Positions 1,217 to 40,376 of a DNA stretch of 64,000 nt are shown in pieces (the stretch's first letter is position 1; each line of letters opens with the position of its first letter). The notes under the pieces were generated by a model. That model saw nothing but the letters and a program-made list of their open reading frames with translations, made no database searches and was not told where the DNA came from. This stretch comes from a phage. The position numbers and the translations under genes are program-made. The stretch lies in sequence record PX853108.1; one strand, written 5' to 3'.

Positions 1217-1536
1217 TAGAGGCTCTCGTCGCTAGATAAATATGAGGTAGAAGGATAGAGGGTAATAAGTCTACCTGTTAGGGTAGTAACTACCATAGGC
1301 TCAGCAGTAGATAGTACGAATACCTGTGCAAACTCAGATATCTCAACTGATGTATCTATCTTAATGAAAGTGATGGGTATGCCTAACATTAGACATGTAC
1401 CTATGAACTCATCAGCCTCTTCATTTGGTTCATATAGGATAGTAGTTCCATCCAGCTCACCATTTAAACAATCCCGTTTAGTTGCTTTACTGCGATAGCA
1501 ACTTGTACTTAGTGCAACTAATGAGTAGAAGTGCAT
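1216..1536 (-). CDS. Small early-region protein, paralog 4 (divergent)
   Basis: 106 aa ORF; ILYEPNEEADEFIGTCLML resembles the ILVPDEQ.LHE..GL core; same strand and tandem context. Confidence 0.4.
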   Translation of the reverse strand: MHFYSLVALSTSCYRSKATKRDCLNGELDGTTILYEPNEEADEFIGTCLMLGIPITFIKIDTSVEISEFAQVFVLSTAEPMVVTTLTGRLITLYPSTSYLSSDESL

Positions 1537-1539
1537 AAC

Positions 1540-1854
1540 TTACTTCCTTACATAGTAGTAACGGTATTCACCCTTCTTATAACGACTCTCCCATTGGTAG
1601 TCATCAGATACCATCATGTATGGGATAGGGTCATTGGCGTTATAGTTGGTATAGACAGAAGGAGGGATAATACATACAACCTTACGGTCATTACCTGCTA
1701 GAAAGAGTTGTCCCCTTACTTCATGGTAGTCCTCTAAGGTAGGAACCAGGATTACTTGATGGGGGTTGCTGTTCATGACTTCTTCTAAAGTGAAGTCAGT
1801 TGTGTACATAGGCTCCCTTTCAGCAAAACTGGGGATGGTCATTATGAATTTCAT
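1540..1854 (-). CDS. Small early-region protein, paralog 5
   Basis: ORF 1540-1929 trimmed to internal ATG (MKFIMT) because the longer form overlaps the 3' end of gene 1820-2218; contains VILVPTLEDYHEVRGQLFL. Start uncertain (alternatives 1842, 1809). Confidence 0.4.
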   Translation of the reverse strand: MKFIMTIPSFAEREPMYTTDFTLEEVMNSNPHQVILVPTLEDYHEVRGQLFLAGNDRKVVCIIPPSVYTNYNANDPIPYMMVSDDYQWESRYKKGEYRYYYVRK

Positions 1855-2218
1855 GATGGATTTTCCTTCCTTTAGGAATGGGTCTGAAGTAAATGGATAG
1901 TGTTTTATTAAAGACGTTATGGTCAACAATCATTTCCCAGCCAGGTACTTTATAGAATCTGATTCCTGGAAAGAATGTTTCGAAGTTCGAGTACTCAGTA
2001 AGATCATACACCTTTGGTTCAGTAAGTATCTCAGTGTTAAGTTGCAGGTTGGATAAGAAAAAAGAACCAATAATCTCGTGTGATTCCTCGCAATCAGGAA
2101 AGAATACTGATTGCCTCGGGGATAGCATCTTACTTACTACCTCTGGTTCCTCTAGGTAATATGGTTCTTGCTTGCGTAGTACACCGGTAATATCAATATC
2201 AAAAGCGTAGATGCTCAT
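1820..2218 (-). CDS. Small early-region protein, paralog 6
   Basis: 132 aa ORF; VFFPDCEESHEIIGSFFLSNLQLNTEILTEP matches the family core. Confidence 0.45.
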   Translation of the reverse strand: MSIYAFDIDITGVLRKQEPYYLEEPEVVSKMLSPRQSVFFPDCEESHEIIGSFFLSNLQLNTEILTEPKVYDLTEYSNFETFFPGIRFYKVPGWEMIVDHNVFNKTLSIYFRPIPKGRKIHHEIHNDHPQFC

Positions 2219-2231
2219 AATTGCATTCCTC

Positions 2232-2270
2232 CAGAAAAAGAAATGGGGTAGAGCCTCTCGACTCTACCCC
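2232..2270 (-). terminator. Intergenic hairpin with T-tract on the minus strand (putative intrinsic terminator/attenuator inside the paralog array)
   Basis: Perfect 9-bp stem GGGGTAGAG/CTCTACCCC (2245-2253 / 2262-2270) with 8-nt loop; minus-strand 3' flank reads TTTCTTTTTCT. Confidence 0.4.
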
Positions 2271-2418
2271 TTACCGTTTTCTATCACGGGTCAGTTCATC
2301 ACCCTAGATACATGTGTATCGTTAGCCTACTAGGTAGGAAAGGAGCCGGGCAACCCTGACTGTAGAAGTTATTAACTCTTTACGAGTACCGCCACTGTCT
2401 ACTAGGCGGCATGACTAA

Positions 2419-2709
2419 TCACATCGTCACCGTCATCCGAACACTGTCTTTGCTTCGCCTGACGGAGACACTATGAGGTAATTTTGTGAAGAACACAAGA
2501 GAGGAATGACGTTTTTCTAAAGAGTAAGTTTCTCTTGGTTCTAAGATTTTAATGCCGGGTCGATTCTCTAAAAGCATCATCCCAGCTAATTCATGATAGG
2601 TATCTTCATCGTGAGTAATGATAATATCATTTGAAAGAATACCAGCTTTGGTGTGGTCTAGTTCTTTGTATTCATCTTTAGAGTCGTGGACTCTCATATA
2701 GATTCTCAA
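2419..2709 (-). CDS. Small early-region protein, paralog 7 (first gene of the array)
   Basis: 96 aa ORF with TTG start at 2709 preceded by AAGGAG at 6 nt spacing; IIITHDEDTYHELAGMMLLENRPGIKILEP matches the core; C-terminus lacks the W..PWH motif. Confidence 0.45.
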   Translation of the reverse strand: MRIYMRVHDSKDEYKELDHTKAGILSNDIIITHDEDTYHELAGMMLLENRPGIKILEPRETYSLEKRHSSLVFFTKLPHSVSVRRSKDSVRMTVTM

Positions 2710-2880
2710 AGGTTACTCCTTTTGGGAATAGGGTCATCGGAACATTACATACTATTTAGTATCATGAACTTTTTCTATATCATGACTAAAGTGTAACTGT
2801 ATGGTATCGTTTCTTCAAGGGGTAACTCATCCCAAGAAAAGAATCTTCTTTAATAGACATAACTTTGTAGCGAGATAAGT

Positions 2881-3570
2881 ATGAGTGAACTAACTAAGCA
2901 GCAGATTATTAATGCCTTACCTGCTAACTTCAAAAACAGTGTGACCCAGGAGTTGGTAGACACAATCAACAACATAACCCAAGACCAACTGGTTGCTGAG
3001 TCCTTCCGTGAAAACTTTATCTCCTACTCTGGTGTAATGAAGGAAGGTAAGTTTAAGACACAGGACTACATGAATGCAGTTCAGTATGTGACTTACAAAC
3101 ACATGGGTTACTCAAATAAGGAAGCCTACTTCAAGACATTCCCTAACCGACAAGCAGAACTTGTTGCACGAGGAACCAGTGAGAAAGACATTAGTGCTTA
3201 TGTATCCGCTTACCACAGAGGTAAGCTAGTTAACCTCATCATGGAACAAAGTTTGGTTCCAGTGTGGATTGTGAACCAGGACAACTATCAGAAGGCAATC
3301 AACGTTCAGGTTGAACTGATGACTACAGCAGCAAGTGAAAAAGTAAGATGTGATGCAGCTAACTCTATCCTTACTCACTTAGCTAAACCGAAAGACCAGG
3401 TAACGAATATCAATCTGGACTTGAGAGAGAACTCTGGATTAACTGACCTCAAGGCAACACTTGCTGCATTAGCTGAACAGCAAATTAACGCAATCAATAG
3501 TGGTGTACCTACCAAAGAGGTTGCTGGTTCTAAACTAGTACGTGCAGATGAGGACATTACAGATGTCTGA
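2881..3570 (+). CDS. Putative terminase small subunit / packaging protein
   Basis: 229 aa ORF immediately upstream of and overlapping the terminase large subunit (ATGTCTGA overlap); first gene of the plus-strand late block. Call rests on position only. Confidence 0.3.
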   Translation: MSELTKQQIINALPANFKNSVTQELVDTINNITQDQLVAESFRENFISYSGVMKEGKFKTQDYMNAVQYVTYKHMGYSNKEAYFKTFPNRQAELVARGTSEKDISAYVSAYHRGKLVNLIMEQSLVPVWIVNQDNYQKAINVQVELMTTAASEKVRCDAANSILTHLAKPKDQVTNINLDLRENSGLTDLKATLAALAEQQINAINSGVPTKEVAGSKLVRADEDITDV

Positions 3571-5152
3571 GTTAATTAAACAGGAACTAGATGAATGGCT
3601 AGACCAGGTGGATTACTCCCACCTTAATTCGTCTAACTATGTTCCTAGTCAGTTTGCTCTTACCTTTGCCAACTTTATTAAGTTGGTTAATGGTAAAGAG
3701 GGTGAATCCAACAAAACACCTCCAGTTCACCTGAAGATGCTGGATAAGATGATTAGTCCTAACCAGTATGTAGTTAACCTGTGCTTCCGTGGTGCAGGTA
3801 AGACTGCTGTGTTTATGGAATACTTTACTTTGTTCCTGGCAGTGTTTGGACACTTACCAAGTCTGGGTAAAGTAGAAGGGATGATTTACGTATCTGACTC
3901 AATGGATAACGGTGCTAAGTCTGCACGTAAGAACATTGAGTTTCGTTATAAGAATAGTGAGTTCCTACAGCAATGGATACCTGAAGCTACCTTTACGGAT
4001 AACCTATTAGAGTTTCGTAATGTAGAAGGACATCGACTTGGTGTTAAGCTGTTCGGTGCTAAGACAGGTCTTCGTGGTACGAAGATATATGGTAAACGCC
4101 CAACACTCTGTGTACTGGATGACTTGATTAGTGATGGTGATGCTAACTCCAAGACTAGCATGGAAGCTATTAAGGATACTGTTTATAAAGGTGTGAACCA
4201 TGCTCTTGACCCAACCCGTCGTAAAGTAATCTTCAACGGTACTCCCTTTAATAAGGAAGACATTATCATTGAAGCGGTAGAGTCTGGTGCATGGGATGTC
4301 AACGTATGGCCTGTGTGTGAGAAGTTCCCTTGTAGTAGGGAAGAATTTCAGGGTGCATGGGATGACCGTTTCTCTTACGACTATATTAAAGCCCAATATG
4401 ACATGGCAGTTAAGACGGGTAAGCTGGCAGGCTTCTATCAGGAACTTATGCTCCGTATTAGCTCTGAAGATGAGAGACTGGTTCAGGATAGTGAAATTAG
4501 ATGGTATAGCAGACAGCAACTATTAAGGATGAAGTCCTGCTACAACTATTACATTACAACTGACTTTGCTACTTCGGAGAAACAGACCAGTGACTACAGT
4601 GTCATATCAGTTTGGGCTTATAGTTCTAATGGAGATTGGTTCTGGGTTGATGGTGTGGCTAATCGTCAGCTTATGGATAAAAACTTTGATGATCTGTTCC
4701 GTCTGGTTCAAGAATACCAACCACAAAACGTTGGAGTCGAAATCACAGGACAACAGGGTGGATTCATCTCTCTCCTTCAGAAAGAAATGATTAACCGTAA
4801 TGTCTTCTTTAACTTTGCATCCTCCGAGGGTGGTAAGCCTGGCATACGTCCTGTAACCTCTAAGCTGTCACGTTTTAACCTGGTAGTTCCTTGGTTCAAA
4901 GCTGGTAAGATGTACTTCCCAGAAGAGTTGAGAGATTCAACTATCATGGGTCTGTTCATGGGGCAGATTAAACTAGCTACCATTAATGGAATCAAAGGTA
5001 AGGATGACTGTATTGATACTATCTCTATGCTGGGTTATCTCAATCCTTGGAAACCACAAGCAGGTATGACTATGGTGGATAACAAGGGTGACCCAATGTG
5101 GGATGACGAAGAAGAAGATAGTGTTAACCCACTACGTTCATACATTGTGTGA
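3563..5152 (+). CDS. Terminase large subunit
   Basis: ORF 3542-5152 begins at GTG; first ATG with an RBS (GAGGA) is 3563. Deviant Walker A (CFRGAGKT), Walker B-like LCVLDDLISD, size ~530 aa, position at head of structural block. Confidence 0.8.
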   Translation: MSELIKQELDEWLDQVDYSHLNSSNYVPSQFALTFANFIKLVNGKEGESNKTPPVHLKMLDKMISPNQYVVNLCFRGAGKTAVFMEYFTLFLAVFGHLPSLGKVEGMIYVSDSMDNGAKSARKNIEFRYKNSEFLQQWIPEATFTDNLLEFRNVEGHRLGVKLFGAKTGLRGTKIYGKRPTLCVLDDLISDGDANSKTSMEAIKDTVYKGVNHALDPTRRKVIFNGTPFNKEDIIIEAVESGAWDVNVWPVCEKFPCSREEFQGAWDDRFSYDYIKAQYDMAVKTGKLAGFYQELMLRISSEDERLVQDSEIRWYSRQQLLRMKSCYNYYITTDFATSEKQTSDYSVISVWAYSSNGDWFWVDGVANRQLMDKNFDDLFRLVQEYQPQNVGVEITGQQGGFISLLQKEMINRNVFFNFASSEGGKPGIRPVTSKLSRFNLVVPWFKAGKMYFPEELRDSTIMGLFMGQIKLATINGIKGKDDCIDTISMLGYLNPWKPQAGMTMVDNKGDPMWDDEEEDSVNPLRSYIV

Positions 5153-5158
5153 GGAACC

Positions 5159-5869
5159 ATGCAGAAATTATCGGAAGTATATCGTGGCTTGGCACTAAGT
5201 ACCTTGAAGGGTACTGGTGCAGTCACTGATGACAGATTAGGCATTGAACCAGATAGCAAGCCTGAAATATTGGCAGCTATTAATGAAGGGCTGGTACGAC
5301 TACATAGTCGTTTCCCTTTAAGGACTAATAGCTGCATTGTGGAGATGAAGGAAGGTCGTACTGATTATCCCCTTCAATCCAGATATGCTTACTCCAAATT
5401 TATTAAGCCTACTCTTGAGATTCAATACCCATATATCATGGATGGGTTCATGAAACCTTTCCAGGATGATGTCATTAAAATCTTAAATGTGTTTGATAAC
5501 TCAGGGAATCGACGTAGACTGAACGACGATTCAGACCCTCATGCAATCTTTACTCCTCGGCCTGATACTATTCAGTGTATGCGACCTCGACACTTCGAGG
5601 CACTTAACGTAACTTATCAAGCTAAGCACCCTGTACTTACGGGTGATGAAGAACAGGAAGTTGATTTAGCTGATACGCTAATGACGGCACTTCATAACTG
5701 GGTGGGTTATCGTTACCACACTGGTTTGAATACTCCGGAAGCTAATGCTAAGGCAGCAGAGTATCTGCAAACATATGAAAGCATCTGTGGTGAGGTTGTT
5801 GATTACGACCTGGCTAATGGAAGTATTTCAATTACCGAAACTAAATTTGAACAACGAGGATGGCGATGA
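5159..5869 (+). CDS. Virion structural protein (tail-associated by position)
   Basis: 236 aa ORF with RBS GAGGAA; lies between terminase and the tailspike-like genes. Confidence 0.3.
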   Translation: MQKLSEVYRGLALSTLKGTGAVTDDRLGIEPDSKPEILAAINEGLVRLHSRFPLRTNSCIVEMKEGRTDYPLQSRYAYSKFIKPTLEIQYPYIMDGFMKPFQDDVIKILNVFDNSGNRRRLNDDSDPHAIFTPRPDTIQCMRPRHFEALNVTYQAKHPVLTGDEEQEVDLADTLMTALHNWVGYRYHTGLNTPEANAKAAEYLQTYESICGEVVDYDLANGSISITETKFEQRGWR

Positions 5870-8547
5870 ACGCACATACCCCCTTTGATGCAAAACAGGA
5901 TTGGACCAATCCTTACTGCCAAAACAGTTCCAATGACCCAATGGTAGATGCATTACTTGGTAATGCTTACCATGTGGTTCGTACTGTTTACTGTAACTTG
6001 GGTAACCTTAAACTTTTGTATGATTTCCTGAACCAGTATGGAATGGTTCTTGGTGTACAGTCAGAGGCAGAACTTAAAGCATTAACTACTAAAGCTAAGT
6101 ATGCACGTATCTATGGCTTTTCTCGTACAGGTGACCGGCAGGTAACTGACTACCTGTATGTGGAAGGTGATCGTACAGGCATTATCCCTGATGACCCAAA
6201 GGCAACAGGTTCATGGATTACTGTTGCTACTTCTGGTTCCACCGGTGGTGGTACTTCTTCCAGCGAAGGTGCTTACATTCCTTGGGTATACAGCAATGGT
6301 TCCGCTACTGGTGGGGAAACCACAATCAACGTACCAGATGGTACGGTAGGTGTGCCTTTCATTATTGTTAATGGCGACATGCAGTATGTAGGCCGTGGCT
6401 TTGAGTTTAATATTGACAGTCTGTCTGTAACTCTGGCTCAACCTTTAGAAGAAGGGGATGAAGTAGTATTCCTTCTGACAGGAGTGCCTGCTGTACCAGA
6501 TAATCCTAACGTTAATGACTGGGTTCAGATTAACTGGTTATACAACAATGGTGCTGCTGTAGGTGGTGAACAGGTTATTACTATTCCTTACACCTTCCAG
6601 TCTATTCCGGCTGTGTATAAGAATGGACTACGTTTGTATAAAGGATTAACTACTGAGTCCTATACTGCTGACCCAGATAACCAACGTATTTTTCTTACCG
6701 AACCACTGACAACCAATGACCGTCTGATTGTACAGATTGGAGGGGAAACACAGGTACTGGAAACATCAGACCATACTATTCAGGAAGTTGCTCGTGCAGC
6801 TAACGTTAAGGATAGTGAGGTAATTCTTAGTACTGACGTTACTCAATTCTTAAATGGTAAGAAGATTGTTTATTCTGTTAGTGAGCAGAAGGCTTATGGG
6901 TTACCTTCTTTGCCTACCAATGTGTACATTCAATCCGTAGAGAACGGTAAGCTTACATACTCCCCTGGAGCCGTGGAAGTAGATTTAGTTCCTATCCCTG
7001 GTTCCTCTGAAGAATTAAAAAATAGTTTAATATCTGATACTGGGGCTGCCATAGTGAGCACTAGTTCTGGTGCAACTGTACAAGCAGAACTTGATAATAT
7101 TACAGAGAAATTGGGGGACTCTTACCCAAATATAAGAGGTAATATTAATACACCTGCAACTGGGTATGTATTCCAACCATATACCCGCTATTACGGCGAC
7201 CATGACATTCGATACATTGGGGGCGGTAATCCTAAGTCAACTAAGCGATTTAAAAAAGATGGGCATGAAACAATAACTCTTACTGGGATTTCTACGACGG
7301 CATCTAATCCTCCAACCATATCGGTGGATACAGTTGCATATGTAAACCCTGCTAGTGCTGACCCTGATGATAGAACCTTCCCTGCAAGTATTACCTTTAA
7401 CGGCCTAGCCTTTGTAGGTGATGATGATGAGACGGGGGAAGTTGGATTAACCATCCTTCAGGGTCAGAATTTCCAGATTCAAGATTGTGGTTTTAGTAAG
7501 ACTAAACTGGCAACTTGGTTTGTAGATGTATGGATGACCAGTGTGAGTAATTCCACCTTCTTTGGGCAGGTTCGCCATGATGGAGGTACTAGCTGTTTCT
7601 ACACTAACTGTTATGCCACTGTACATGATGCCTCAGTACCACTAGGTGCATACAGAATTTCTAATATTCAGTATGGTAATATGACCTCTTGTGCCTCGGA
7701 TGGGACGATAAATGGTGCTTACTGGTTTAACGGTAATAATGGATTAACAGTTAATAACTGTGGGTCAGAAGTTCCTACCACAATGGACAGGAACTATGGT
7801 ACTGCTGCGCACTTTGAAAAAAGTAATGAGATGGTACTTACCAATTTTTATACTTTACCCGCAGAAGGTACTAACATGCTCATATCAGTAAAAGATGATA
7901 ATGAGTTAGTATTCAATAACATGATGGTATACGGTAGCCCTGATAGATACAGCCGGGATTTCTGGTTTACAGGCACGAACAATAACTTGATTATTAATGG
8001 GGGCATCTTTGGTAATCGAGGAGACTTCCCACGTATTGCCACAGACCATGCAGGAAACACTGTAATTTACAATGCTGTTAATGGTAACTCATACATATGG
8101 AAAACTAAAACAGCGGCCATCACTGCTGTATGGGAACCAAAGTACCTTTCACAGACATTGGATACTACATCTGATGTCGTATTTACGAACAGCGGTCCTG
8201 TAACAGGAGGAACACGAGATATTAAATTCACTAAGAATGGTAATACTGCTACTGTTGAATTTGATATTACTATTCCAAGTGTTTCTGGTGCAGTGGGACA
8301 ACTTCGTATAAATGGTTTGCCTTATGCTGCTGCTCAACAAGCTAGTGGTAGTGTAGCTATAGCCATTGGTTTAGGTACGGGTGTTGGTAATATTTCTTGT
8401 GCCGTTATCAGAAATGGGACTGAGATACTGTTCTATAAATCTACAACAGCAGGCGGTGTATCATCCGCACTTGTGCCATCAGACCTAACCGATGGATGCA
8501 GCCTTCGCGGTAGTATTACCTACTCCTGTGTATCCGATTGGGATTAA
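5860..8547 (+). CDS. Tail fibre / tailspike-like protein with beta-helix-type C-terminal region
   Basis: 895 aa; Gly/Thr/Asn-rich repetitive C-terminal half typical of parallel beta-helix receptor-binding proteins; internal ~70 aa module (nt ~6781-7015) homologous to the N-terminus of the next gene. Alternative start ATG 5866. Confidence 0.45.
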   Translation: MAMNAHTPFDAKQDWTNPYCQNSSNDPMVDALLGNAYHVVRTVYCNLGNLKLLYDFLNQYGMVLGVQSEAELKALTTKAKYARIYGFSRTGDRQVTDYLYVEGDRTGIIPDDPKATGSWITVATSGSTGGGTSSSEGAYIPWVYSNGSATGGETTINVPDGTVGVPFIIVNGDMQYVGRGFEFNIDSLSVTLAQPLEEGDEVVFLLTGVPAVPDNPNVNDWVQINWLYNNGAAVGGEQVITIPYTFQSIPAVYKNGLRLYKGLTTESYTADPDNQRIFLTEPLTTNDRLIVQIGGETQVLETSDHTIQEVARAANVKDSEVILSTDVTQFLNGKKIVYSVSEQKAYGLPSLPTNVYIQSVENGKLTYSPGAVEVDLVPIPGSSEELKNSLISDTGAAIVSTSSGATVQAELDNITEKLGDSYPNIRGNINTPATGYVFQPYTRYYGDHDIRYIGGGNPKSTKRFKKDGHETITLTGISTTASNPPTISVDTVAYVNPASADPDDRTFPASITFNGLAFVGDDDETGEVGLTILQGQNFQIQDCGFSKTKLATWFVDVWMTSVSNSTFFGQVRHDGGTSCFYTNCYATVHDASVPLGAYRISNIQYGNMTSCASDGTINGAYWFNGNNGLTVNNCGSEVPTTMDRNYGTAAHFEKSNEMVLTNFYTLPAEGTNMLISVKDDNELVFNNMMVYGSPDRYSRDFWFTGTNNNLIINGGIFGNRGDFPRIATDHAGNTVIYNAVNGNSYIWKTKTAAITAVWEPKYLSQTLDTTSDVVFTNSGPVTGGTRDIKFTKNGNTATVEFDITIPSVSGAVGQLRINGLPYAAAQQASGSVAIAIGLGTGVGNISCAVIRNGTEILFYKSTTAGGVSSALVPSDLTDGCSLRGSITYSCVSDWD

Positions 8548-8601: not shown

Positions 8602-10485
8602 ATGAACGAAATGTTCTCACAAGGTGGTAAAGGTTCAACTGGTATTCTTACCAATAAGCAAGCCATTGCCCGTAAGTTTGGTGTTAAGCAGAATGAAGTA
8701 GTCTACTTTTCTGTAGGTGTAGACTTAGGTGGATACAAAGTCATTTATGATAAGACTACTCAACGTGCTTACTCATTGCCCGTACTTCCAGTAGGAACCA
8801 CTGCTGTAAGTCTCAGTGAGCAGGCAGTCCTGGTTCATTCAGCAGGTACAGTTGATTTGGGTGAACTGGCTGCTACACGTAGGGAATTCGTAAGCCTGTC
8901 TGATACGTTTGCTACTGGTTTGGTAGTGAATACTCGAAATGAGATTCTGATGCATGATGGTATAGGTTATACCTATTTAGGTGCTCTACCTGTAACTATT
9001 GCCGCAGGAACTAACCCTGTCGGTAATTCTGACTGGAAGGCTCAGACAGACCCATATTTACGCACAGACTTGGCTAGTTCTGATGTAAACAAAGGCGCAT
9101 CGATTATCAACACTACTTCTGGTTTAAACGTTCAGGAGTCGCTAAACACCCTGAGGTTATCGGCTACCGCGAGTTCTATTTCGGCCAATCTGGCTTTAGG
9201 CTCCGCAAAAGTTATTGACTCCGTATCCAGTGCCGATTCTTTTATCCTCCCATCCTTCGCTACGTTAGAAGGGGGAGATAATTTCTTAACCGGCTTCATA
9301 GGAACCTCATACCAGAAAAACAAAACTATTCGTAAATCAAGTAATACAACTGTTACGTTAACAAACCAAGACCCCAGCGCTGGGAGTCAATCCGTGGACG
9401 CGGTTGTATACCAAGACCCGGCATGGCCAGGTGGCGCTGTATTTCCTCAAAAATCGGCATTAAAGCATATTACTATTGAGGGTAACTCTGCTGCTAACCC
9501 TAGTCAGGCCGGTTTTTTTGTATTACAAGGCGGAGTAGTTGACATTGAGAATGTGGATTTCATCAACTGCACCTATGCGATATGGGCTAAAGATATCTGG
9601 CAAAGCCGCATCTCCAGAGTATTCTCCAACAACGGAAAGATTCGCCTTGATAACGGTACGTCTGTTGTACTAACAGGATGTGGGTTGGCTTCTGCCGATA
9701 CTACAAGAACAGGCGCATTTGATCTTACGGGCATGAAGTATTCAACGCTTATTGGTTGTACATCAGACCATACTACCAATACTGCCTATTCATTCGATGC
9801 TTGTGAAGGAATTGTGCTGGACGCTTGCGGATGTGAGGGGGCCAACACCACAACAGCTAATTCTGGAACGGCTCTGGCTTTTAAAGATAACAATCATAAT
9901 ATAGTGGTCAACGCTTTCACATGTTTCCCGGTAGCTGACCAAGGCCCCGCTTTGATATCATTCGGTAGTAACAACCAGGTAACCCTAAACTCGTTCGAGG
10001 TTATACCAGGAATTACATATAATGGGGACATATACCTTTATGGGGCTAATTCTCATATCACTATAAACGGGGGACGCTTTGGTTCAGACGGCAATGCTAT
10101 GCCTATTGTAACGGCTTCGGCTAATGCCATTGGCTCCACTATAACATATCATCACCGCAGGGGTATTACGTATACATACACAGTAACAGCCGCAGGAATT
10201 GTAACTCCGGTACAACATTTCCGCCCTATTGTGTCTGCTGTTATTAACTCTGATGGTACTGTTAGAAGCGGTTTCGGCGTTAATAATGTAACTAAAAATA
10301 GCACAGGTTCTTACACTATTAATTTCACTAGTGAGATTGCCACGGGATATGCGATCCAACATTTATCCTCATTTGGATTTGTGCAGGTGAGCGTTTTCGA
10401 CTCAACAACACTAACGGTATTATTCCTTGACCCAAGCAAAACACCAACTGATACGGACTTCTCGGTTAATATAGCTGGCTGGTAA
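8602..10485 (+). CDS. Tailspike-like protein, pectate-lyase-like beta-helix (putative depolymerase)
   Basis: 627 aa; RBS AAGAGG; N-terminal module (nt ~8665-8866) shared with gene 5860-8547; Asn/Cys-rich repeats (ITIEGNSAA...VDIENVDFINCTYAIWAK...) suggest a right-handed beta-helix. Confidence 0.45.
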   Translation: MNEMFSQGGKGSTGILTNKQAIARKFGVKQNEVVYFSVGVDLGGYKVIYDKTTQRAYSLPVLPVGTTAVSLSEQAVLVHSAGTVDLGELAATRREFVSLSDTFATGLVVNTRNEILMHDGIGYTYLGALPVTIAAGTNPVGNSDWKAQTDPYLRTDLASSDVNKGASIINTTSGLNVQESLNTLRLSATASSISANLALGSAKVIDSVSSADSFILPSFATLEGGDNFLTGFIGTSYQKNKTIRKSSNTTVTLTNQDPSAGSQSVDAVVYQDPAWPGGAVFPQKSALKHITIEGNSAANPSQAGFFVLQGGVVDIENVDFINCTYAIWAKDIWQSRISRVFSNNGKIRLDNGTSVVLTGCGLASADTTRTGAFDLTGMKYSTLIGCTSDHTTNTAYSFDACEGIVLDACGCEGANTTTANSGTALAFKDNNHNIVVNAFTCFPVADQGPALISFGSNNQVTLNSFEVIPGITYNGDIYLYGANSHITINGGRFGSDGNAMPIVTASANAIGSTITYHHRRGITYTYTVTAAGIVTPVQHFRPIVSAVINSDGTVRSGFGVNNVTKNSTGSYTINFTSEIATGYAIQHLSSFGFVQVSVFDSTTLTVLFLDPSKTPTDTDFSVNIAGW

Positions 10486-10490
10486 AACTA

Positions 10491-10515
10491 AGGCCCCAAA
10501 GGGGGCCTTTCTTGT
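10491..10515 (+). terminator. Intrinsic terminator after the tailspike gene
   Basis: Stem AGGCCCC/GGGGCCT with AAAG loop followed by TTTCTTGT, 6 nt after the stop codon. Confidence 0.6.
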
Positions 10516-10741
10516 ATAGAGTTTACTGTTTGCATTACCCTAATAGATACTGCTGTTAGGGTGATTACTTGTCCGGATATGTTAAACATATCTAGCTGAA
10601 TACCATCCACCATGAATGGGTCTGTTGAACCAAGTGTGTATGTAGCTAATACATTGTCTCTGTTAGCAATGTCCGTACCTTGTACCTTAACACTAACATC
10701 TGAACATACTACTGTAGTTCCATTGGTTCATCTTGTTTGTG

Positions 10742-10777
10742 TTGCCATTCCCTTACCGTGCCAGCACTTCTTATAAT
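10742..10777 (+). promoter_or_regulatory. Candidate late promoter (perfect -10 TATAAT, no convincing -35)
   Basis: TATAAT at 10772-10777 in a ~380 bp ORF-free gap about 115 nt upstream of the lysis cassette; a missing -35 fits N4-type late promoters, which depend on the phage SSB. Confidence 0.2.
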
Positions 10778-10892
10778 AGTTCCTAGGGCAGACACTATGT
10801 CTGGATGTACCTCATCATACTAAGTATTATCTAATGGTCATCTTATGATATGACCCTATTGGGGTTCCTAACTACACAACTACGGTAATATT

Positions 10893-11222
10893 ATGAATGA
10901 ATCGGGTGAACTGCTTCTAGTCAGACTGGAGGAACGATTGAAGACTCTGTTTGATAACCAGGCAAGAGACAGACAGGACCGTGAGAAACTGGAGGAAACT
11001 CTGGTAGAACTACGGGATTCAATCAATGACATAGGTAATAGATTAAAGAATGTGGAGGATAGCTTAGCTAAGAATGAACCTACTATTGAAGAGTTCATCA
11101 CCATTAAGCATAAAGTTGTTGGTGCTGGAATTTTTGGTAAGTGGGTATGGGCTGGGGCAGGTGCAATTATCGGTGTATTAGCTGCTGCAAGACGGGAGAT
11201 ATTCGCATGGTTCGCAGGCTGA
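10893..11222 (+). CDS. Membrane-anchored coiled-coil protein (lysis-associated; antiholin/holin-like)
   Basis: 109 aa; charged coiled-coil N-terminus and one C-terminal hydrophobic Gly/Ala-rich segment (VVGAGIFGKWVWAGAGAIIGVLAAA); first gene of the lysis cluster. Confidence 0.35.
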   Translation: MNESGELLLVRLEERLKTLFDNQARDRQDREKLEETLVELRDSINDIGNRLKNVEDSLAKNEPTIEEFITIKHKVVGAGIFGKWVWAGAGAIIGVLAAARREIFAWFAG

Positions 11223-24410: not shown

Positions 24411-24472
24411 TAACTGGCTTACTGTAGAGTAAGTTACCTATATACGATATAAGTTTGAATAGGAAACATGCT

Positions 24473-36909: not shown

Positions 36910-37493
36910 TTAATGAGTGAGTCACGCCAGACTTTAACTGGCTCCTTCTTCGCAATCCTTACATACCCCTACATAATTATTGCGTTAAGCTTTTTTGTTT
37001 AAGTTTAAGTGAAGGCGTTCTTGCTGACTCATAATAGGTTGGGCGTTTGACGAATGACTAGTTCGTTACTACCCGTTTGCCATAAGTACCTGGCGACTTT
37101 GGTTTGAGGTGGGAGTCCGAGTCCTGTACAGCCTTACCGTTCACACATTGGCAGCGTATCTAGAATAGCACTTCCGGCAACTGGATTTAACTGTTACACC
37201 TCAAATCTGGTAGGGGCGTCCAGAAGTCTCATCTGGTACTTACGCCGTCGTATGGTTACGACTTACCCCCATAATCTTTCTAATTCAGAGTAGCACTGCT
37301 CCACGTTTGGCCTTTGAACTCCGGGATGGATTAGTGCAATGCTACTTTGAATTAGTTGTCAGGGATTCCACCTGGCTCCATCTGTTTTTATAGTCACTCA
37401 GATATCGTCTGGACTCTTTACTATGGGACTCACCGGCTACTTAGAGTAACTACGGTAAATATTATTCCACAGCTTACATTGATGTCGCATCCC

Positions 37494-39024: not shown

Positions 39025-39579
39025 TTACGCCTTTAATAACTTAATAAGGTTCTGGAAAGCTGGGAGATTTACACCAGCATGGATTGCACCGATTGCATCA
39101 GCTAAGTGCTCATTCTTATTCAGAAGTTTGCCCTTCTTATCTGTGAGCCAGTTGGCTTCAGGATAGAAGGCATGAGCAGCACGAATCATCGTGTCTTTGG
39201 ATGCGGTTTTATCACCGACCAGTGCAAGTTTGTTTTCAATTGGGGATACTTCAAAGATTGGACAACCCAATGCACGAAATGCACCTATTAATCCTACGCA
39301 TACTCCATAGGATTTCATACCATTAGCAGACTGGGAGCCTACTGGTACTTCTACGAATACTGCTTTAGCAGACCGTAACCATTCCTCACAACCAAGAAAC
39401 AAATCGTGAGCGGCTTGTATATCTTTGGAGTTGGTTCGAACTTGTTTGTTGTGGTCAACTTCAGTTTGAACCAGTTTAAGTTCGACCTGCTCGAAGACGC
39501 CGGACTCAATGTCCAGCGTCCCACGAGCTAAACCCCAATTGCGGAGACTAATGTCTGCACCAACAATTGGGATTTTCAT
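39025..39579 (-). CDS. RuvC-like Holliday junction resolvase
   Basis: 184 aa; N-terminal IVGADISLRNWG (catalytic Asp), FVEVP, and C-terminal HLADAIGAIHAG resemble RuvC-fold motifs. Confidence 0.5.
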   Translation of the reverse strand: MKIPIVGADISLRNWGLARGTLDIESGVFEQVELKLVQTEVDHNKQVRTNSKDIQAAHDLFLGCEEWLRSAKAVFVEVPVGSQSANGMKSYGVCVGLIGAFRALGCPIFEVSPIENKLALVGDKTASKDTMIRAAHAFYPEANWLTDKKGKLLNKNEHLADAIGAIHAGVNLPAFQNLIKLLKA

Positions 39580-40376
39580 TAACGTTTACCGAACAGTGAT
39601 TTACCACCAGCAGGAGTAGTACTCGTGCCAGCACCTGGTTTAGGAGGTAAGCCACCTTTACCATTACCACCAGCAGAACTCTTAGTCTTGTCGCGAGTTT
39701 TGCCTTTGTTCTTCTCCAGCCATGCTGCGTAGAATACAGCCAGTTCTGGGGTCAGCTCTTTTTCAGCCTTCTCTGCTTCCTGAGCCTCGACGACTGTGAC
39801 CAGCAGTTCCGGGTGAAACACTTTCTGAATCTCGTTTACTTCACGGGTTTCACCGGAGTCAACGTAGCCGTTGTCACCTTTAACCTGCTTGGATTCCAGA
39901 ACTTTTTCCAGAGCGAAGGTAACAGTCTGGTTTACCAGATCAACTGGAACCATGACAGACTTATTAACTTCTGCTTTAGCATCGAAATCGTAGACTTTAA
40001 CAATCTTCTCTTCGAAGTCTGCTTCAGGCAGTTCAGTACCAGTAGCCATTAGCATCATGTCGTTAATGACAGTGTAGCCAGGCAAGAAGTATTCTTTACC
40101 GTTCTTCTCGTAAGTAGGCTTGTTGCCTTTAGCATTACCAGAAGTGAAATATACCTGAGCACGGAACTCACCAGCAGGTACGCCATCTGAGTTTTTCATG
40201 TCATCAATGATTAACTGCATCCAGTCTGCCCCAGAGTCAGCTTTGCCTACGTAAGCTACTTTTACATTACCGGTGTAGATATCGGTTTCTTTTGCACCGA
40301 AGCCACCTCCACCCAGAGAGTCTTTAACAGCTTCAACGTTTTTGGTTTTTTCTTTCAGATTACTGAACAATGACAT
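39579..40376 (-). CDS. Single-stranded DNA-binding protein (N4 SSB-like)
   Basis: 265 aa, the length I recall for N4 SSB; Gly-rich N- and C-terminal tails; sits between the resolvase and the recombination ATPase. Assignment by position and composition only. Confidence 0.45.
   Translation of the reverse strand: MSLFSNLKEKTKNVEAVKDSLGGGGFGAKETDIYTGNVKVAYVGKADSGADWMQLIIDDMKNSDGVPAGEFRAQVYFTSGNAKGNKPTYEKNGKEYFLPGYTVINDMMLMATGTELPEADFEEKIVKVYDFDAKAEVNKSVMVPVDLVNQTVTFALEKVLESKQVKGDNGYVDSGETREVNEIQKVFHPELLVTVVEAQEAEKAEKELTPELAVFYAAWLEKNKGKTRDKTKSSAGGNGKGGLPPKPGAGTSTTPAGGKSLFGKR

Follow-up and report, generated by a model that had tools for sequence, protein, structure and literature searches.

Why does the late operon of an N4-like phage, in which genes are otherwise tightly packed, contain a seemingly empty space of about 400 bp just before its lysis genes, and does this space hold the promoter from which those genes are transcribed? 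The sequence that we analyzed, 64,000 nucleotides of record PX853108.1 (hereafter the window, to which all coordinates refer), comes from a G7C-like N4-like coliphage (Gamaleyavirus, Schitoviridae) whose late genes lie on the + strand. The late block includes a gp66-like tail protein gene (5860–8547) and a gene for a tailspike of 627 amino acids (8602–10485, stop codon at 10483–10485). The first gene 3' of the space encodes a homolog of N4 gp63 (10893–11222, 109 amino acids, phrog_5211), after which come homologs of holin gp62, endolysin gp61, spanin gp60 and portal gp59 (compare Bp4 orf15–19 and the N4 annotation). In many GenBank records gp63 homologs are labeled as tail length tape-measure proteins, which is implausible for the 109-residue homolog of a podovirus; a predicted C-terminal hydrophobic stretch and the place of the gene before holin suggest a lysis-associated membrane protein.

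The original prediction described the space as a non-coding gap of about 380 bp without an open reading frame on either strand. The gap is there, and it measures 407 bp (10486–10892) from the tailspike stop to the ATG of the gp63 homolog at 10893, more than any other intergenic space among the late genes of the + strand. The term non-coding did not hold, for most of the gap, about 70% of its length, is the sequence of a dead gene on the opposite strand. Our reading is that the gap is probably a composite of a terminator, a pseudogene remnant and a regulatory stretch. As a finding, a pseudogene remnant next to a terminator and a candidate promoter is ordinary, with an evolutionary side story that is modestly interesting. 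It carries a lesson for annotation, namely that a seemingly empty gap within a tightly packed phage late operon can be the remnant of a gene.

At the left end of the gap, scans and folding identified a stem-loop at 10490–10509 with an 8-bp stem containing six GC pairs, a 4-nt loop and the tail TCTTGTAT. The predicted folding energy is −15.4 kcal/mol on the + strand and −15.3 kcal/mol on the minus strand, and the stem-loop is followed by a T-run on the + strand and by TTTT on the minus strand. This is the arrangement, a GC-rich stem-loop and then a T-run, of an intrinsic terminator, so that the tailspike terminator that had been assumed in the original prediction is indeed predicted here, on both strands. 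The element is conserved in Gamaleyavirus and in Ackermannviridae. It would stop transcription that comes from the tailspike gene and also, in relatives, from the convergent gene described below.

The nature of the sequence beyond the terminator was revealed by a BLAST comparison of 10400–11000 with phage genomes. In about 12 Gamaleyavirus genomes the match to this region was split by about 370 extra bases. In phage nithesis the extra bases complete a minus-strand gene of 208 amino acids, which we call the knob gene. The segment 10512–10788 of the window is the 3' third (codons 118–209) of this gene: its DNA is 85–91% identical to the minus-strand gene annotated in nithesis, Bp4, pSb-1 and the UE-S5/UE-M phages, and it lies where the intact genes of nithesis, Bp4 and pSb-1 lie, in the interval between the tailspike terminator and gp63 and on the opposite strand. 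A tblastn search of the window with an intact knob protein (P0001) gave 93% identity over 76 amino acids (residues 133–208), and the translated remnant (71 amino acids) matched phrog_17779 with an E value of 5e-33 at profile positions 139–207 of 208.

The window copy carries several lesions. The deletion of knob codons 1–117 took the start codon ATG and the Shine-Dalgarno sequence with it, the loss of one nucleotide at about 10744 shifts the frame, a CGA codon has become a premature TGA stop at 10728–10730, and the original stop codon has been lost by a TAA to CAA change at 10512–10514. Thus, neither a complete reading frame nor a start codon nor a ribosome-binding site, as expected of a functional member of the family, is left. 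Because the segment has lost its first 117 codons and bears a frameshift and a TGA and yet still matches phrog_17779 with an E value of 5e-33, it is a pseudogene remnant of the knob gene, a conclusion of which we are nearly certain.

The history of the remnant may be outlined as follows. The knob gene would once have stood tail to tail with the tailspike gene and head to head with gp63; the loss of about 370 bp would have taken away its first 117 codons, and the frameshift, the nonsense codon and the loss of the stop would have come after. In the intact genes the segment that is missing from the window is flanked by the imperfect direct repeats GATACGAACACT and GATACCAGACACT, which lie beside a 7-bp palindrome, and this arrangement suggests that the deletion arose by slippage between the repeats next to the palindrome. 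Phage ShWW44 has the same knob-gene deletion as the window, and an exact search of IMG/VR for the deletion junction of the window returned no match. Other genomes have lost more of the gene: ZQ2 and ECBP1 keep about 35 codons of it and PBM-3 and U1G none, and all four retain gp63 and the lysis genes. Two further sequence features deserve mention. A 10-mer, ACTACGGTAA, recurs at 37450, which by our own estimate is expected by chance. A perfect hairpin with a 7-bp stem and a 3-nt loop (GATATGT-TAA-ACATATC) occurs within the remnant at 10576–10592 and is missing from nithesis; the window has five perfect hairpins of these dimensions against 3.45 in shuffled sequences, which is not informative.

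The knob family itself comprises 57 protein clusters of 170–225 amino acids with a conserved C-terminal domain of about 150 residues. The intact protein matches phrog_17779 with an E value of 2e-116, and a comparison with Pfam gave no match. An AlphaFold model of the intact homolog P0001 had a pLDDT of 80, and its best fold matches were the tail-needle knob of Sf6/HS1, TNF-like lectins and PRD1 P5, to which the sequence identity is only 10–17%. Some members of the family have collagen-like N-termini, and some records carry the labels 'protease' or 'tail needle knob' without evidence. Intact family genes are also found near lysis and tail-fiber genes in FSL SP-058 (L032, Ithacavirus), CLB_P1 (L033, Kayfunavirus, gp18.8) and ZPAH14 (L034, Chaseviridae), the last with a collagen-like N-terminus; several genes of this set are annotated as protease without support.

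Could the gap nevertheless encode a small product? The absence of open reading frames noted in the original prediction is correct for long frames only, since two short ones are present, a 41-aa frame on the minus strand (10488–10613) and a 54-aa frame on the + strand (10612–10776). The 41-aa frame is the tail of the knob pseudogene; it starts at an internal Met, ahead of which we saw no Shine-Dalgarno sequence. The 54-aa frame matches no PHROG family, and five of seven relatives have a stop in it; the stop falls at codon 10 in nithesis, Bp4, pSb-1, PC3 and SKML-39. Neither frame is credible as a gene. A scan for tRNA genes in the gap found none, and a scan against Rfam with E values up to 10 found no family above noise.

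A structured non-coding RNA would most plausibly be sought at the hairpin ACCCTAA (10538–10544)/TTAGGGT (10557–10563), which the original prediction had listed beside its promoter candidate. The hairpin is present, and folding extends it to 13 pairs at 10534–10566; as + strand RNA it has an energy of −17 kcal/mol, with z = −5 relative to shuffled sequences. As a control element it did not stand. It lies within the remnant, antisense to the knob codons for ITLTAVSIRVM, and 49 further sites in the window, each assessed over 41 nt, have folds of equal or greater stability. Its covariation score in eight sequences (0.092) was not above the shuffled mean (0.093): a single pair had both of its bases changed, and in nithesis, PC3, Bp4 and SKML-39 pairing is disrupted by several changes that affect one partner only. 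Thus, although two short frames exist, the hairpin is stable, and a promoter-like site on the minus strand (see below) could transcribe the remnant, the stop at codon 10 in five relatives, the origin of the 41-aa frame in the knob C-terminus, the Rfam result and the lack of covariation leave almost no room for a small protein or a structured RNA encoded here.

The central claim of the original prediction concerned a perfect TATAAT on the + strand at 10772–10777, which was put forward, together with activation by the phage SSB, as a −10-only promoter of the lysis cassette. Its premises are sound. The late promoters of N4 resemble sigma70 promoters weakly and are activated by N4SSB (PMC4496689, PMC9163698), and the SSB-like gene that had been named, 39579–40376, is of the N4SSB type (phrog_743, E 4e-88). 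The hexamer is also as described: it matches the consensus at six of six positions, lacks a TG extension, and has as its best −35 candidates, at 17–18 bp spacing, TCCCTT and TTCCCT, which match TTGACA at one or two of six positions. From base composition about 0.2 TATAAT would be expected per 407 bp of one strand. The presence of the hexamer in the gap is not trivial, because it is strongly depleted genome-wide: the whole window contains 11 copies on both strands, compared with 48.2 ± 6.1 in dinucleotide-preserving shuffles, a more than 4-fold depletion. Of the five copies on the + strand, those at 10018 and 10772 belong to the exchange-prone tailspike cassette and the remnant.

The comparison with relatives spoke against a role for the hexamer in the lysis cassette. 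The site, which lies inside the knob remnant, is lineage-specific and is altered or absent in all relatives compared, reading TGCAAT in nithesis, pSb-1 and PC3, TGTAAT in Bp4 and TACAAT in ShWW44; four phages with the same lysis cassette, ZQ2, ECBP1, PBM-3 and U1G, lack the whole segment that contains it. Because relatives that lack the segment keep gp63 and the lysis genes, neither the TATAAT nor the 10534–10566 hairpin can be a conserved control element of the cassette, as judged from these alignments. Both would be by-products of a former coding sequence that is drifting. It seems that hunting for promoters by consensus alone selected such a lineage-specific by-product instead of the conserved element.

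We still had to consider that this hexamer serves as a functional, SSB-activated −10-only late promoter of the lysis and portal genes in the window phage itself. A perfect consensus with only four other copies on the + strand of a genome depleted of it more than 4-fold, and the weak resemblance of N4 late promoters to sigma70 promoters, favor such a role, and the steps toward consensus in the two lineages sharing the deletion, from TGCAAT in intact genes through TACAAT in ShWW44 to TATAAT in the window, might reflect recruitment of a new promoter. But the sequence is conserved in no relative, lies in what was coding sequence of the opposite strand, is absent in four phages with the same downstream operon and has neither a −35 element nor a TG extension; moreover, both changes in the series are G:C to A:T transitions, which fits drift in an A+T-leaning pseudogene. 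We therefore regard a functional role for it as very unlikely.

A different picture emerged for the stretch between the remnant and gp63. From 10789 to the ATG the alignment of the nine Gamaleyavirus loci has no large gaps, and the invariant blocks include CTGGATG, TAAGTATTATCTA and CATCTTATGATA. Within the stretch we noted TGGATG (10802–10807) and TATTAT (10825–10830), separated by a 17-bp spacer on the + strand, with a predicted start at about 10837. TATTAT matches the −10 consensus at five of six positions and TGGATG matches the −35 consensus TTGACA at three of six; both hexamers are invariant in nine of nine loci, those without a remnant included. In AV101, TGGATG is retained and the −10 reads CATTAT. 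The pair lay below the threshold of the sigma70 consensus scan and was not called by it. RNAfold predicted two small hairpins at 10837–10866, the 5' end of the putative gp63 mRNA: GTCAT-ctt-ATGAT at 10837–10849, which begins six nucleotides past TATTAT at the predicted transcript start, and GACCCT-att-GGGGTT at 10852–10866.

Other N4-like groups, with a gp63 only 68–77% identical to that of the window, show this layout as well. There, too, a terminator and then a promoter-like site precede the genes for gp63, holin, endolysin, spanin and portal, in the order terminator, TAnnnT, six nucleotides, GTCA-hairpin and ribosome-binding site. In most of these groups a hairpin begins 7 nt after the −10-like hexamer, with arms that differ (GTCAGA/TCTGAT, GTCA/TGAC); in two loci, L009 and L020, no hairpin was predicted at this place. 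From the recurring layout we infer that the gp63 transcript begins with a hairpin. The overall identity of the 91 nucleotides upstream of gp63 (mean 90.4%) equals that at the third codon positions of gp63 (90.6%) and is therefore unusable as evidence of constraint, so that the case for constraint rests on the pattern of invariant blocks and on recurrence across genera. N4 itself has an aligned TGGATG-17-TACTAT, but it is not clean support for the promoter model because a terminator-like hairpin follows before gp63.

These observations lead us to place a candidate promoter of gp63 and the lysis cassette at TGGATG-17-TATTAT (10802–10830), a placement for which we judge the chances to be about even. 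The stretch 10789–10892 would then include a late promoter of the sigma70 type, weak and starting near 10837, which would restart transcription of the gp63, holin, endolysin, spanin and portal genes after the terminator and which the phage SSB presumably activates, as in N4. Thus, the kind of promoter that had been expected in the gap, a weak late promoter dominated by its −10, is plausible, whereas its position was probably not the predicted one, the conserved candidate being about 50 bp further downstream. The literature searched contained no transcript mapping for any Gamaleyavirus. A perfect TATAAT in a genome that avoids the hexamer could fire, alone or with SSB, and read-through of the terminator could supply the lysis transcripts with no promoter in the gap.

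Three other sequence elements were considered as late-promoter signals and put aside. The palindrome TACT-N(0-5)-AGTA occurs 15 times in the window against a chance expectation of 12.4 ± 3.4 and was dropped as post hoc; as a shared late-promoter element it is broken in PBM-3 and absent in a second genus group. TACT-N(1-4)-AGTA stands beside a −10-like hexamer in each of the three larger + strand intergenic regions (2750–2761, 10818–10826 and 24420–24431). TATNAT-N6-GTCA occurs once in the window and is locus-specific. The palindrome (G)CAGACA-cta-TGTCTG(G) at 10790–10806, which can be read on either strand, has stem and loop lengths that fit the hairpin promoters of the N4 virion RNA polymerase. 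These have a 5–7 bp stem and a 3-nt loop with −11G and −10G, inside a GC-rich heptamer (PMC4496689). The palindrome was rejected as such a promoter, its loop being CTA on the + strand and TAG on the minus strand, with no central G-rich heptamer.

The same palindrome marks the right end of the deletions; PBM-3 and U1G lack its left arm. In the phages with an intact knob gene it forms a perfect hairpin of 7 bp with a 3-nt loop, located between the knob Shine-Dalgarno sequence and a sigma70-like site on the minus strand. In the window this site, ATGACC-16-TATGAT at 10814–10841, was found by the consensus scan and points into the remnant. It is the only two-hexamer sigma70-like match in the gap, and one such match is not above chance by itself. 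In nithesis the site stands in the same place, and after it come the palindrome, a Shine-Dalgarno sequence (GAGG) and the ATG of the knob gene; it is probably the promoter of this gene in relatives. In the window it may still drive synthesis of a non-coding RNA of about 300 nt, with the bidirectional terminator at its 3' end. Decay of its −10 in phages without a knob gene showed no clear pattern, and PBM-3 reads TATAAT there.

The remnant also led outside the family. By BLAST, 10482–10784 matches Ackermannviridae phages with genomes of about 155 kb at 80–86% identity. The 3' piece of the knob gene lies after a tailspike gene and before a VriC-like gene in PC3, SKML-39, LHE287, fGh-Ecl02 and CAU_YEP3; A221, RPN242, PH4 and YX22 match the piece at the level of sequence. 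Indels or stops differ from one inspected remnant copy to the next. Tailspike-module exchange between these genera has already been published, and a conserved 20-nt terminator motif ('motif three'), found downstream of receptor-binding-protein genes in Gamaleya-, Kutter- and Justusliebigviruses, has been proposed as a recombination hotspot (PMC10408124). The terminator at 10490–10509 appears to be this motif, a match made by description and not by sequence. The knob remnant is not described in that paper, nor in two Ackermannviridae papers searched by term.

Nithesis and PC3 are 95–100% identical across the receptor-binding domain and the terminator, 84–86% identical in the anchor domain and about 90% identical in the knob sequence. 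The drop in identity at the anchor domain and the knob sequence therefore places putative recent crossovers at those borders, that is, at the junction of the anchor and receptor-binding domains and just inside the knob sequence. Nithesis (L001, positions 1–669 and 1226–3307) and PC3 (L024/L002) are 97–98% identical over 0.67 kb and 2.1 kb of tail genes, and this shared DNA is, as read from the identities, a very recent exchange between Schitoviridae and Ackermannviridae.

The tailspike clusters of AV101 and SKML-39 also contain pieces of the gp63 promoter region and of gp63. In AV101 (L035, Agtrevirus), 49 nt of knob remnant follow one tailspike gene (3560–3608); the palindrome, the gp63 promoter region and gp63 codons 1–26 follow another (6001–6185); and gp63 codons from about 18 to 55 lie about 4.9 kb further on (11092–11167), so that the gp63 remnant appears to have been split by two tailspike genes. 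In SKML-39 (Agtrevirus; L029 and L003, the end and start of the record) a gp63 remnant covering amino acids 17–83, with 73% identity, lies between two tailspike genes.

The ends of the knob remnants nearly coincide across the families. The end falls at gene nt 354 in the window (10785–10788) and at nt 352 in three Ackermannviridae phages (at about 5306 in L002, 5157 in L003 and 3275 in L028). A second near-coincidence is seen between ZQ2/ECBP1 (nt 525) and CAU_YEP3 (about nt 514). The shared boundary may reflect either a deletion hotspot or common descent.

Is the remnant, then, kept for a purpose? Together with the terminator it might be retained as a homology arm for swaps of tailspike cassettes between Gamaleyavirus and Ackermannviridae. 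The piece is matched in all nine Ackermannviridae phages named above, the fall in identity between nithesis and PC3 just inside the knob sequence looks like a recent crossover, and the 20-nt motif had been proposed as a hotspot before. Every remnant, however, is disabled in a different way, and in several Gamaleyavirus genomes the remnant is shortened stepwise or absent, the pattern of neutral decay; usefulness in crossovers requires no selection for the remnant, and we found no exchange in which the copy of the window took part. Retention for this purpose is in our view unlikely. The broader proposal, in which remnant and terminator form a cross-family 'landing pad', a right-hand homology arm for receptor-binding modules of Gamaleyavirus and of Agtrevirus/Kuttervirus, possibly with the birth of a promoter through TGCAAT, TACAAT and TATAAT as well, we hold to be quite unlikely. 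We prefer to see the remnant as a decaying footprint of DNA flow between two unrelated families, one that stretches the published 20-nt motif to a homology of about 300 bp. For tailspike swapping in G7C-like phages, the cassette can be taken to end at the terminator, with 10512–10788 removable and 10789–10892 to be kept.

Several known systems resemble parts of this locus. The intact homolog of the knob protein is modeled as the same TNF-like jelly roll as the Sf6/HS1 knob, PLTL, BC2L-C and PRD1 P5, and collagen-like N-termini are found on some members of the family as they are on trimeric fibers; the window copy differs in being a fragment that cannot fold. Like 'motif three' (PMC10408124), the terminator of the window lies directly after the tailspike gene and is common to Ackermannviridae; the published motif has 20 nt, whereas here the cross-family homology runs about 280 bp further, because this stretch is the remnant of a neighboring gene. 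Gene remnants at the borders of exchanged phage modules are alike in that a truncated flanking gene travels with the cassette and decays. The knob gene is intact in Gamaleyavirus and truncated in Ackermannviridae, which suggests a direction of transfer; Gamaleyavirus, however, also has copies that are truncated, at a point no more than 2 nt from the Ackermannviridae boundary, and simple one-way hitch-hiking is therefore insufficient. Finally, the late promoters of N4, which are used by sigma70 RNA polymerase with N4SSB (gp45), offer a parallel to the candidate promoter: it heads a late gene block of the leftward type, it combines a good −10-like hexamer with a poor −35, and the window genome has a homolog of N4SSB. 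It differs in that the aligned hexamers of N4 precede a terminator-like hairpin and in that the start site in the window is a predicted one.
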